Origin: a virus
Lineage: Duplodnaviria > Heunggongvirae > Uroviricota > Caudoviricetes
Reading direction: 5' to 3' (one strand)
Virus record (IMG/VR): IMGVR_UViG_2537561944_000018
DNA length: 23,498 nt
The translations under genes and the position numbers were made by a program. Below, in pieces: positions 3,215 to 23,498 of the stretch (its first letter is position 1; each line of letters starts with the position of its first letter). Under the pieces are notes generated by a model that saw nothing but the letters and a program-made list of their open reading frames with translations, was not told where the DNA came from and ran no database searches.

Positions 3215-3291
3215 TGGCGCGTTGTAGTGGAGTCGAACCACTGACCGATTGCTTAGAAGGCAATTGCTCTGTCCGACTGAGCTAACAACGC
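3215..3291 (-). tRNA. tRNA-Arg (anticodon UCU), CCA encoded
   Basis: 77-nt cloverleaf: acceptor GCGTTGT/ACAACGC, D-arm GCTC..GAGC, anticodon stem ATTGC/GCAAT with loop CTTCTAA, T-arm AGTGG-TTCGACT-CCACT. Confidence 0.9.
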
Positions 3292-3304
3292 ATGATGCTG
3301 ATAA

Positions 3305-3381
3305 TGGACCGCCATCGGGGACTTGAACCCCGCGCAGCCAGCTTCGAAGGCTGGCGCTCTGTCCCGATGAGCTAATGGCGG
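3305..3381 (-). tRNA. tRNA-Arg (anticodon UCG), CCA encoded
   Basis: 77-nt cloverleaf: anticodon stem CCAGC/GCTGG with loop CTTCGAA, T-loop TTCAAGT; acceptor pairs CCGCCAT with ATGGCGG (C1-G72). Confidence 0.8.
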
Positions 3382-3390
3382 TATGTGATA

Positions 3391-3466
3391 TGGTGGCCCT
3401 TGCTGGATTTGAACCAGCGACCTGGCGATTATGAGTCGCTCGCTCTCACCACTGAGCTAAAGGGCC
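3391..3466 (-). tRNA. tRNA-Ile2-like (anticodon CAU; Met not excluded), CCA encoded
   Basis: 76-nt cloverleaf GGCCCTT...AAGGGCC with anticodon loop CTCATAA; closely resembles E. coli ileX as recalled; first of a three-tRNA cluster as in Stx-type phages. Confidence 0.85.
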
Positions 3467-8623: not shown

Positions 8624-8842
8624 TCAGCTTTCCTTATACGGATTAATTTTATTGTGCAGTGTGCTGAACGACGCCCACACCACGTCGTTATACAATTCAA
8701 TAACTGGCTCAATTATTTTCACGATAAACCAGACCAGTAATAGCGGGGGTATCGGTATCATCAACACGATAAATATAATGAGAAACAAAAATTCTGTCGC
8801 TCTACTTTTTCTCGGATATTCTTTTCTGAATAATGTAGTCAT
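8624..8842 (-). CDS. Small membrane protein, 72 aa
   Basis: ATG at 8842; central hydrophobic stretch FLFLIIFIVLMIPIPPLLLVWFIVKII; stop TGA 1 nt before the HNH ATG. Confidence 0.5.
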   Translation of the reverse strand: MTTLFRKEYPRKSRATEFLFLIIFIVLMIPIPPLLLVWFIVKIIEPVIELYNDVVWASFSTLHNKINPYKES

Positions 8843-8847
8843 TTCTT

Positions 8848-8872
8848 ACCGCCCTTTCAGGCGGCCTCCTGA
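8848..8872 (-). promoter_or_regulatory. SD-hairpin element, copy 1 (structured ribosome-binding site)
   Basis: Minus RNA UCAGGAGG-CCGCCU-GAAA-GGGCGG, 6 nt before the AUG at 8842; 24/25 identical to 9920-9944. Confidence 0.5.
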
Positions 8873-8929
8873 TGTTTTGAGGGTGCAGAAATCCCTCCGG
8901 TTAAGGATTAAATTTTTAACTAAATTTAA

Positions 8930-9565
8930 TTATTCAGGCGCGATAAGCTGTTCCGCACAATCCAGCAATGCTTCTGTCGCTTCCTTAAGCGTTACTGTAT
9001 CGCTATCATCCAGTCCTGCAACTTTTTCGTACCTGACAAACGCCGCGCAAAGCTCGTTAAACAACCCCGCCCGTACTTCAGCCAGGAAAGCGTCGGTGGC
9101 CGGAGTTTCAGGAATCCGTCTCCTCATCCGTTCTATTGCATGATTGAACCCGAAATCTTCAGCAAGAGATACGTCATCCATATTGTCATTGTCGTCCTCA
9201 ATATCCCGTGGTTCTGGAATTGCAGACTTTATTACCGCATTCTCCGCCGCCAGCGCCACAAGATTAGCTTTCAGCTCTGCAATTCGTTTGTTTTGGGCTT
9301 CCCGTTCATCCAGTAGTGCCAGCGCAACATTTGGATTAAAAGCAGCAATAAATTCAGCGTTTGCATAAGCCTGAACATCTGTTTCAACCAGGCAGTTAAC
9401 ATGACATTCTGCAATTACGCCACCGGGCTCTCCTTTCCATTTTTGACAAACAAAAACTCCTGTTATATTCCCATGCTGATTGCCCGATGTATGCCCTACG
9501 ATGTAGCATCCTTTAGTTGCTTTCTCTGCTGCTTCACGCAGCGCCTGATAGTCAATCTCGCTCAT
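8930..9565 (-). CDS. Ead/Ea22-like protein, 211 aa
   Basis: N-terminal MSEIDYQALREAAEKATKG characteristic of Ea22-like proteins as recalled; ATG overlaps the upstream stop (ATGA). Confidence 0.75.
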   Translation of the reverse strand: MSEIDYQALREAAEKATKGCYIVGHTSGNQHGNITGVFVCQKWKGEPGGVIAECHVNCLVETDVQAYANAEFIAAFNPNVALALLDEREAQNKRIAELKANLVALAAENAVIKSAIPEPRDIEDDNDNMDDVSLAEDFGFNHAIERMRRRIPETPATDAFLAEVRAGLFNELCAAFVRYEKVAGLDDSDTVTLKEATEALLDCAEQLIAPE

Positions 9566-9738
9566 TCATCGCCCCACTCATCACAATATGCTTCGACCGG
9601 ATTTTTTCCTGCTTCATAATCATCACGCCATGCTTCAGCATCAGCAGCACTGCCACCACGTAACTCTGCATATTCCATTAACAGTTCATGCCATTCTTCA
9701 AAACTGACGCTGTATTTAGTTGAACCAAAATCAGCCAT
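9562..9738 (-). CDS. Hypothetical acidic small protein, 58 aa
   Basis: ATG at 9738 (4 nt before the upstream TGA), stop overlaps the Ea22-like ATG; MADFGSTKYSVSFEEWHELLMEYAELRGG.... Below the ORF-track cutoff. Confidence 0.5.
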   Translation of the reverse strand: MADFGSTKYSVSFEEWHELLMEYAELRGGSAADAEAWRDDYEAGKNPVEAYCDEWGDE

Positions 9739-9913
9739 TTTGTTCTTCCTCTTCGTCTTTTATTTCGTGATATGAATAATTGCAGTAGTTAAAGAAAATA
9801 TCTTTTGCTTCGTCATGTATTTCATCAGGCGTCGCATCATCATCCACTTCGAATTCATCCTCGAAATCTCCACCGGCTATTCCCGTTTCAATAATTATTT
9901 TAAACTTTCGCAT
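9731..9913 (-). CDS. Hypothetical acidic small protein, 60 aa
   Basis: ATG at 9913 preceded by SD-hairpin copy 2; coupled to the downstream ORF. Confidence 0.55.
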   Translation of the reverse strand: MRKFKIIIETGIAGGDFEDEFEVDDDATPDEIHDEAKDIFFNYCNYSYHEIKDEEEEQNG

Positions 9914-9919
9914 TTAACT

Positions 9920-9944
9920 ACCGCCCTTTCGGGCGGCCTCCTGA
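9920..9944 (-). promoter_or_regulatory. SD-hairpin element, copy 2
   Basis: Minus RNA UCAGGAGG-CCGCCC-GAAA-GGGCGG, 7 nt before the AUG at 9913; the loop-closing pair is C-G here versus U-G in copy 1. Confidence 0.5.
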
Positions 9945-9946
9945 CA

Positions 9947-10159
9947 TTAATCGTTGTGGTAACTCATGGCTTCATTTGCAACATCAACCGGATCAACCTC
10001 CCACCAGCAATAATTTGGTGCGTTTCCTTCAGGTGTCCACGGTTCTAATTCATTTTTTGCCGCATTCTCATCGCCAGTAATTTTAAAAATCTGCTCAGAG
10101 AATTTTCTTGCCCACTCGTTATATTTTTCCGCATTAATGGCTTTCTGTGTATTTAACAT
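9947..10159 (-). CDS. Hypothetical small protein, 70 aa
   Basis: ATG at 10159 with GGAGG 7 nt upstream. Confidence 0.55.
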   Translation of the reverse strand: MLNTQKAINAEKYNEWARKFSEQIFKITGDENAAKNELEPWTPEGNAPNYCWWEVDPVDVANEAMSYHND

Positions 10160-10209
10160 AAATATACCTCCAGTTCAGGATTAGATTTTATTTACAGCGC
10201 TAAATTTAT

Positions 10210-18468: not shown

Positions 18469-18526
18469 TTTCTGGTGACGTTTGGCGGTATCAGTTTTAC
18501 TCCGTGGCTGCTCTGCCGCCCTTTTT
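18469..18526 (+). ncRNA. dicF: DicF small regulatory RNA with its U-tail terminator
   Basis: TTTCTGGTGACGTTTGGCGGTATCAGTTTTACTCCGTGGCTGCTCTGCCGCCC followed by T5; matches the DicF sequence as recalled, with one apparent A-to-G difference; lies just upstream of the dicB homologue. Confidence 0.8.
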
Positions 18527-22316: not shown

Positions 22317-23207
22317 TCAGGCTGCCAGATCATTATTTCCGATGGAAGCATAATAAGCTTTTTCTGCTTCTGCCGGAGGAATATGGCCCAGCCTTTCCAG
22401 CAATCGTCGATTGTTATACCAGTCCACCCACGTTAGTGTGGCCAGTTCCACTTCTGTCCGGTTTTTCCAGCTATTACGGTGTATTACCTCCGCTTTGTAA
22501 AGACCATTGATGCTCTCAGCCATCGCGTTGTCATACGAGTCGCCAGTACTCCCTGTTGATGCCAGTAATCCGGCTTCCTTAAGCCGCTGCGTGTAGGCCA
22601 GCGATACATACTGAGAACCTTTATCACTGTGATGGATTGTGCCGGACGGCCGACGGGCCCACAACGCCTGCTCCAGTGCATCCAGCACGAATGTTGTTTC
22701 CATGGATGATGAGACCTGCCATCCCACGATGTATCCGGCGAACACATCAATGATAAACGCCACATAAACGAAGCCCTGCCATGTGCTGACCCAAGTAAAA
22801 TCAGCCACCCACAACTGGTCTGGACGTTCTGCCACGAACTGACGGTTTACGCGGTCGCATGCGGCAACGGCTTTCCGGCTGACGGTAGTGCGGACCTTTT
22901 TACCCCGGAGAACACCGGCAAGCCCCATAACTGCCATGAGACGTGCCACAGTGCATCTGGCCACTCTGATACCTTCCCGTAACAACTGACGCCAGACTTT
23001 ACGCACACCGTATACCTGGTGATTTTCATCGTATACGCGCTGTATCTCTTTCTTCAGCCAGTCATCGTGCTGCGCACGGGCACTGCGTTTATCCGGATGA
23101 TGTCGCTGTTGCTGACAATGGTAATACGTTGACGGGGCAATATGCAGTTCGCTGCATACCGGTCCGACCCCGTACTGCTCACGCAGCTTATCCAGCAGTG
23201 GCATCAT
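22317..23207 (-). CDS. IS629-like transposase OrfB (DDE), about 296 aa from MMPLL
   Basis: DDE/rve motifs (...HHSDKGSQY...YDNAMAES...); the frame stays open upstream to 23297, overlapping orfA for frameshift fusion. Confidence 0.75.
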
Positions 23208-23498
23208 TTTTCCAGAGGCGGTCGAACTCCGCCTTCGCAAAATAAGCGGAAGCCTGGCGAAGGATATCGTTACTGCGGCGCAGTTCACGATTTTCACGTT
23301 CCAGCTCTTTCAGACGCTGACGTTCAGCACTGGTGAGCCCACCATCACCGCCCCCGGTATCCCGCTCATGCTGGCGAACCCAGACACGCAGAGTCTCCGG
23401 CGTACAGCCAATCTTTGGGGCAATGGAACAAATTGCCGCCCACTGTGAGTCATATTCATCCTGACTTTCCAGAACCATACGAATCGCCCGCTGACGGA
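23188..23498 (-). CDS. IS629-like transposase OrfA, 5'-partial (start lies beyond the window)
   Basis: ...[39 protein letters not shown]...[26 protein letters not shown]; HTH and leucine-zipper region of IS3-family OrfA. Confidence 0.75.

Follow-up and report, generated by a model that had tools for sequence, protein, structure and literature searches.

How does a ribosome find the start codon of a gene whose Shine-Dalgarno (SD) sequence lies 22 or 23 nucleotides (nt) upstream, beyond the roughly 15 nt over which it could be used directly? The question is raised by a pair of near-identical 25-nt elements in the IMG/VR record IMGVR_UViG_2537561944_000018 (Caudoviricetes), a DNA of 23,498 nt whose whole length is here called the window; positions are those of the window, and features lie on its minus strand unless stated otherwise. 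Copy A (9944..9920, TCAGGAGGCCGCCCGAAAGGGCGGT) precedes a gene for a 60-amino-acid (aa) DUF7167 protein (9731..9913; gp15 of phage ArgO145), and copy B (8872..8848, TCAGGAGGCCGCCTGAAAGGGCGGT) precedes a gene for a 72-aa DUF4014 protein (8624..8842; ArgO145 gp12). Each copy carries an SD sequence followed by a GC-rich hairpin, and we lean towards reading the 25-mer as the 3' end of a portable linker between interchangeable accessory genes that works as a split ribosome-binding site (RBS) of the type described for gene 38 of phage T4.

The two copies are identical at 24 of 25 nt. A search of the window allowing up to three mismatches returned them as the sole matches, with none in 100 shuffled sequences; the match is genuine and well beyond what chance would give. 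The layout is the same in both: AGGAGG, a 6-base-pair (bp) GC stem that reaches 7 bp with a terminal G.U pair, a GAAA loop, 7 or 6 nt, and ATG. In copy A, the SD occupies 9937..9942, with its first base 4 nt past the TAA stop codon (9949-9947) of an upstream 70-aa gene. The hairpin CCGCCC-GAAA-GGGCGG follows at 9921..9936 (arms 9936-9931 and 9926-9921, loop 9930-9927, optional seventh pair G9937.U9920), and then the 7-nt spacer UAGUUAA (9914..9920). Direct reading of copy B places the SD at 8865..8870, the hairpin CCGCCU-GAAA-GGGCGG at 8849..8864 (arms 8864-8859 and 8854-8849, loop 8858-8855, loop-closing U.G) and the 6-nt spacer UAAGAA at 8843..8848. From the end of the SD to the ATG there are 23 nt in copy A and 22 nt in copy B, and from the last G of the stem 7 nt and 6 nt, inside the functional range of 5-11 nt. 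The initial annotation had described two 25-nt copies with one mismatch, placed 6-7 nt before the starts at 8842 and 9913 with a linear SD-to-AUG distance of 22-23 nt, and both the sequence and the measured distances agree with it.

Folding of the leaders predicted the hairpin in both cases, at -15.5 kcal/mol for copy A and -12.9 kcal/mol for copy B (z = -3.4 and -3.6), in line with the 6-bp GC stem and GAAA tetraloop that had been proposed next to the AGGAGG. In a 170-nt context the pairing probability of the stem is 1.0 in copy A and about 0.85 in copy B, and the hairpin lies wholly between the SD and the AUG in each. The duplex between AGGAGG and the 3' end of 16S rRNA was calculated at -10.3 kcal/mol, and the first five nt of the copy A SD are predicted to be unpaired with a probability of 0.92-0.97. 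The spacers of both copies are free of GGAG, GAGG and AGGA. The single difference between the copies is a one-sided C>U change at the loop-closing pair, which turns C-G into a U.G wobble and keeps the stem, as the initial annotation had stated. A small upstream open reading frame (ORF) running through the hairpin was also considered and rejected, having neither a start codon nor a consistent stop.

The start codons themselves are secure. The annotation of ArgO145 puts the starts of gp15 and gp12 at these ATGs (9913 and 8842), an in-frame TAA lies directly upstream of the gp15 ATG (as the end of the spacer) and one codon upstream of the gp12 ATG, and the Pfam matches reach the N-termini (PF23768, E = 7.9e-15, from residue 2 of the DUF7167 protein; PF13198, E = 5.7e-22, from residue 1 of the DUF4014 protein). 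BLAST shows 100% identity of the compared stretch with Stx2 phage ArgO145 and with Stx2a-converting phages; its place is the accessory region, with the recombination genes on one side and xis/int on the other. The accessory genes are all on the minus strand of the window and therefore probably form one early operon. Neighbouring genes in it mostly overlap or abut; those that stand behind an untranslated gap are gp15, gp12 and the 70-aa gene, gp16.

The arrangement closely resembles a site that is already known. In the T4 genome (NC_000866) the gene 38 leader reads UAA-GGAG-[AGGGGC UUCG GCCCUU]-CUAAAU-AUG, with a folding energy of -15.6 kcal/mol and 22 nt from SD to AUG. Hairpins in T4 shorten the spacing from 22 to 5 nt for gene 38 and from 27 to 11 nt for gene 25; mutations that destabilise these stems lower initiation, and the sites have been called split or non-contiguous (PMC3014915, PMC7297116). 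The gene 38 site is credited to Gold 1988. Gene 38 and the unit described here share an upstream stop, an SD that touches or overlaps the foot of a GC stem, an extra-stable tetraloop, an A/U-rich spacer of 5-7 nt and the AUG. Their SD-to-AUG spacing (22 nt against 22-23 nt) and stability (-15.6 against -15.5 and -12.9 kcal/mol) are nearly equal, so the likeness to T4 suggested in the initial annotation was well founded. The two differ in the loop, which is UUCG in T4 and GAAA here, and have no sequence homology. The T4 site serves one gene and is backed by mutational data, whereas the unit here is a repeated cassette of temperate phages, stands before at least five gene families and is known from its sequence and predicted fold.

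Two further systems are related in part. The split RBS of T4 gene 25 (Nivinskas et al. 1999; Malys & Nivinskas 2009) likewise has a hairpin between SD and AUG that is conserved in close relatives; it differs in lying at the overlapping gene 26-25 junction, in its longer effective spacing and in being a single locus. In E. coli thrS (Sacerdot et al. 1998) and the rpmE leader (PMC7297116), the 30S subunit also tolerates a stable hairpin that positions essential single-stranded parts, but there the hairpin separates an upstream enhancer from a normally spaced SD and is an autoregulatory operator, whereas here it separates the SD from the AUG. The split RBS as a type is already known from T4 genes 38 and 25. 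What is new about the unit described here is its scale, with thousands of copies in about half of complete E. coli genomes, its portability across gene families and its embedding in a module at mosaic junctions.

An IMG/VR scan for the 19-nt hairpin found it in at least 120 contigs, with 125 instances among the matches listed. Within these 125, the context ..TC(A/G/C)GGAGG-hairpin-T-A-rich-ATG was present in 124, and 112 had a callable ORF of at least 30 codons behind them. The lone exception (contig L022) is an unrelated true terminator with a T-run that contains the same 19-mer. A search of other prophages, which the initial annotation had proposed as a check, thus found the unit widespread and its position before start codons kept. 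The genes behind it belong to at least five unrelated families, namely DUF7167, DUF4014, Ead/Ea22-like, a 173-aa family and a 158-196-aa family. Complete E. coli genomes contain the 30-nt unit 4,816 times, spread over 2,636 of 5,426 genomes and with up to nine per genome; its host elements are lambdoid, Rac-like and Stx (Shiga toxin) prophages, where it is confined to the accessory regions. In a scan of species-representative genomes, E. coli and Shigella flexneri were the only species in which DUF4014 accompanied by the unit turned up, and the element is absent from the Rac prophage of K-12. A comparison with Rfam gave no hit at the gathering threshold and only noise at E values up to 5, and none of the papers searched prints the sequence; the Pas sRNA (small RNA) of a preprint was considered and is unrelated to the element. 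Copies A and B are thus two instances of a population-wide linker. The initial annotation's "duplicated element" is misleading in this respect: the pair is no local duplication, and copy B is part of a longer conserved module of about 90 nt that the annotation did not mention.

The spacing behind the hairpin falls into a narrow class. In all 101 instances without an SD of their own after the hairpin, the distance from the last G of the stem to the start is 6, 7, 8 or 9 nt; the one family at 11 nt carries a GGAG of its own, 6 nt ahead of the ATG. Where DUF4014 and Ea22-like homologues come without the unit, a conventional SD stands 4-8 nt ahead of that same ATG, and since this is always so, the genes appear to rely on an SD. 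Its core was kept in every variant seen (GGGAGG, CGGAGG, AGGAGA). Protein-anchored sampling recovered only 100%-identical DUF7167 genes and added little divergence.

Copy B forms the 3' end of a conserved intergenic module of about 90 nt (8843-8932). According to the consensus and minimum-free-energy folds, the 5' part of the module (8871..8932) contains two hairpins and an orphan SD-like GGAGG. The first element is an AT-rich hairpin with the arms AUUAAAUUU and AAAUUUAAU (8930-8922 / 8915-8907), followed by AAUCCUUAACC. The orphan GGAGG (8898-8894) lies within the 5' arm of the second hairpin, GAGGG/CCCUC (8897-8893 / 8883-8879), after which AAAACA leads to the SD-hairpin unit. A core of about 63 nt is invariant in 45 distinct instances, and the long module is present in 1,465 of the 5,426 E. 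coli genomes. Among isolated phages it was found in 19 records, 18 of them from E. coli phages (Stx, Rac-like, mEp460) and the other filed under an Actinobacillus phage; on the pR side, some copies are placed behind the replication genes. A promoter and terminator scan made no minus-strand call at either copy or in the module, where the sole terminator-like call was a weak plus-strand site (8857-8872) overlapping copy B.

Other pairings were also predicted within the module. The predictions have UCCU (8906-8903) and a CUGA..UCAG helix pairing with the real SD or beside it, and the pairing alternatives of 8879-8898 could represent an alternative-structure switch. In one variant (L063), the second hairpin shows a register shift to GAGUG/CACUC, which is no real covariation. 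In another (L122, 1500-1567), found in phage vB_EcoS-666R9 and two sister phages, the module has eight consecutive G where GGGATTT would stand, and a C>G change breaks the second stem pair; these could be real variants or homopolymer assembly errors.

The module is related to the flanks of the 70-aa gene, gp16 (9947..10159, no Pfam match), which lies between the 5' half of a module and the SD-hairpin unit of copy A. The half-module before it (10160..10209) comprises the AT-rich hairpin and AAUCCUGAACUGGAGG, and in it GGAGG (10171-10167) takes the part of an ordinary SD, 7 nt ahead of the ATG at 10159. Copy A represents a short form, with a stop codon 4 nt ahead of the unit. In 39 of its 41 instances the unit stands behind the 70-aa gene and the half-module before that gene, and the other two have no ORF call. 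With the half-module upstream and the SD-hairpin unit downstream, the 70-aa gene therefore sits like a cassette, and the long module looks like both cassette flanks joined, with the first SD orphaned.

Gene order around the element is mosaic. One upstream gene end (e.g. ...RATKSRTE-stop) is joined through the module to six different downstream genes, and DUF7167 is found behind at least eight different upstream genes. In BLAST comparisons, the homology blocks of seven phage records begin at query 257-258, which corresponds to 9944-9943, the first bases of copy A; other blocks stop at query 1354 or 1361 (8847 or 8840), where copy B finishes or a few bases further on. The same sequence is thus found at the boundaries of non-homologous genes, with homology blocks ending there, as in the boundary or linker sequences of lambdoid phages. 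That concept is attributed to Susskind & Botstein 1978 and Clark et al. 2001 in PMC3233612, where it likewise concerns a short conserved sequence with differing flanking genes at which homology blocks end. The linker described here differs in having a defined RNA anatomy, with an SD-hairpin RBS and two further hairpins.

Taken as a split RBS, the unit would work as follows. On the minus-strand mRNA of the early operon, the GC stem with its GAAA tetraloop would fold and stay folded, and the anti-SD of the 30S subunit would pair with the AGGAGG left exposed at the stem's 5' foot. By analogy with T4, the hairpin would remain folded and looped out in the initiation complex. The effective SD-AUG distance would then be about 6-7 nt instead of 22-23 nt, because the AUG lies 6-7 nt past the 3' foot of the looped-out hairpin. 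As the unit folds on itself, it probably also shields the SD and the AUG from pairing with adjacent genes, and its near-identical sequence would provide homology for recombination between phages. A structured RBS, as proposed in the initial annotation, is the best explanation of the locus. The anatomy of SD, hairpin, spacer and AUG stands, as does its comparative fit, and the part in which the hairpin raises translation rests on the analogy with T4.

Variation within the stem was examined for its bearing on this reading. Among exact 28-mer matches in complete E. coli genomes, the changes that keep a G.U pair were C6>U in 190 genomes (the same allele as in copy B), C4>U in 221, C1>U in 3 and C5>U in none; of the pair-breaking changes, G1'>A and G3'>A were found in no genome, G6'>A in one and G2'>A in 10. 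In IMG/VR, wobble variants at C6, C4 and C2 occurred in 48, 48 and 3 contigs, and the changes of their partners in 4, 0 and 1; the four contigs with G1'>A all come from a single lineage whose downstream gene is equipped with an SD of its own. The sole stem variants at appreciable frequency are therefore C>U changes that keep G.U pairing. The word "compensatory" in the initial annotation does not fit this pattern, which consists of one-sided C>U wobbles and rare pair-breaking variants with no double change found. RNAalifold on an alignment of the 45 distinct long-form instances gave no pair with a two-sided change, and targeted scans for compensated pairs with the partner left free, metagenomes included, found none. 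A fuzzy search of 1.18 Mb of loci returned no diverged copies, and a generic SD-hairpin-ATG pattern returned only noise apart from the canonical unit. A comparison of leader with coding diversity was set aside, as the sample had been picked by its hairpin sequence and low leader diversity was built in.

Truncated units were also encountered. In one IMG/VR locus (L132, 200-320) and two similar loci, a DUF7167 gene stands behind a truncated unit (GGGGATCCCTCAGGCCCGAAAGGGCGGTAGTGAAATG), in which unrelated non-coding DNA stands in place of the SD and most of the 5' arm and the rearrangement joint falls inside the hairpin. The truncated unit GGGGATCCCTCAGGCCCGAAAGGGCGG was considered as a natural deletion of the SD and rejected, since a rearrangement has joined it to non-coding DNA upstream, which makes the case uninformative.

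Several observations weigh against a split RBS. No two-sided, compensated change was found in IMG/VR, in the E. coli genomes or in metagenomes, and the variant pattern is weak evidence because it reflects few independent events, includes no two-sided change, leaves pair-breaking alleles in circulation and admits an alternative constraint on the 3' arm. The pair-breaking G2'>A allele is carried by 10 genomes in which the annotated downstream gene is intact, and the pair-breaking variants G3>A and C2>G also persist. The excess of variants in the 5' arm over the 3' arm could equally reflect a constraint on the 3'-arm sequence itself. If the stem opened, GGGCGGU of that arm would lie at a normal distance and could itself pair with the anti-SD (-8.1 kcal/mol). 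The SD of copy B and of the long module is predicted to be partly paired with upstream module sequence, and the A-rich, unstructured spacer could offer a route to SD-independent initiation. One gene family retains an SD of its own behind the hairpin, so the hairpin cannot be an indispensable RBS part in every case.

Alternatively, the element could be mainly a recombination linker or hitchhiking scar whose hairpin has no role in start selection, a reading that we consider unlikely, yet the most serious rival. The genes would then be translated through the A-rich spacer or the weak GGGCGGU, and the hairpin may instead be an element of mRNA stability or processing, for example as a 3' exonuclease barrier for the upstream cistron or as a 5' cap-like stem after an RNase E cut in the AU-rich part. 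The combinatorial shuffling of genes around the element, with homology blocks that end there, fits such a linker, for which the lambdoid boundary-sequence concept is established (PMC3233612). Near-invariance without covariation is what recent spread or gene conversion would produce, and the hairpin is kept before a gene with its own SD while pair-breaking variants survive beside intact genes. However, a pure linker needs neither an AGGAGG abutting the hairpin nor 6-9 nt to every start. Homologues without the unit always have a normal SD, and the close match to the proven layout of T4 gene 38 would have to be a coincidence.

The linear spacing of 22-23 nt could also be taken at face value, with a hairpin that attenuates translation by keeping the SD too far from the AUG, as a decoy or standby site. 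This would give low expression of possibly toxic genes or, in the short form, coupling to the upstream gene, whose stop codon in copy A is 33 nt from the AUG. The predicted partial sequestration of the long-module SD by UCCU and the CUGA..UCAG helix would point the same way. We regard attenuation as improbable, as the same geometry enhances initiation in T4 genes 38 and 25 and the constant 6-9 nt after the stem is what an active SD requires.

Strict conservation without covariation, with a 3' arm less variable than the 5' arm, is typical of a sequence-specific protein site, and the GNRA hairpin might accordingly be an operator for an RNA-binding protein such as an N-like arginine-rich peptide, of the kind that binds GNRA folds of the boxB type, or another phage translational repressor. 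CCU-GAAA-GGG presumably resembles the lambda boxB stem with its GNRA-type loop. In nut sites, boxB is a GNRA-like pentaloop hairpin with boxA upstream, present once each after pL and pR. The element described here has a tetraloop instead of the pentaloop, direct reading found no boxA-like CGCUCUUA in the leader of either copy, and up to nine copies per genome lie deep in operons on both the pL and pR sides; with no Rfam match in addition, an operator is very improbable.

Least plausible of all is a repetitive extragenic palindromic (REP)-like mobile palindrome or an intrinsic terminator that lies near starts by chance: a GC-rich palindrome repeated many times per genome and the true terminator in L022 speak for it, but the SD-hairpin-ATG context of 124 of the 125 listed instances, which leaves the initial annotation's REP-like repeat at non-RBS positions unsupported, the confinement to prophage accessory regions, the tails UAGUUAAAUG and UAAGAAAUG without a T-run and the scan, which calls neither copy on the minus strand, speak against it. 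Compared with REP palindromes, bacterial interspersed mosaic elements (BIMEs) and intrinsic terminators, the unit is likewise a repeated GC-rich intergenic hairpin, and it differs in being fixed before starts, attached to an SD, free of a U-tract and restricted to prophages.

Other features of the window complete the setting. An HNH endonuclease gene (Pfam PF01844, 8257-8622) begins 1 nt past the stop codon of the DUF4014 gene. A full-length Rfam match to DicF RNA (18470-18521, plus strand; 75 bits, E = 3.7e-15) lies on the strand opposite to the accessory genes. At the other end are an STnc100 sRNA match (2273-2445, 104.7 bits) and a cluster of tRNA-Arg(UCU), tRNA-Arg(UCG) and tRNA-Met(CAU) (3215-3466). 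Judged by the offset to the ArgO145 record, the tRNA cluster occupies the position of that phage's integrase gene and STnc100 falls outside the record, so window and ArgO145 diverge here. At the right end of the window, an ALIL pseudoknot (Rfam, 115.7 bits; 23133-23248), the frameshift signal of IS3-family transposases, points to an insertion sequence.

Returning to the split RBS, we tentatively suggest an extension of this reading, possible rather than probable, in which the unit is a natural plug-and-play cassette: a self-folding and context-insulated split RBS that doubles as a homology linker for swaps of accessory genes in E. coli temperate phages, so that any gene behind it would be translated at a set rate whatever its neighbours. 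The long module, whose orphan SD is locked in the second hairpin, would then be an empty socket, left without a cassette such as the 70-aa gene. Split RBSs have been textbook curiosities from a handful of single loci (T4 genes 38 and 25, thrS). If the role proposed here is true, the unit would be by far the commonest natural example, with thousands of copies before many unrelated genes, and a natural series for measuring how the 30S subunit accommodates a looped-out hairpin. Starts of this kind will be scored wrongly by gene callers and RBS predictors that rely on the linear SD distance, and the unit may find use in engineering as a compact insulated RBS. For the lambdoid phages, it would give the linker model a molecular face, in which one sequence is both a recombination joint and an expression signal.

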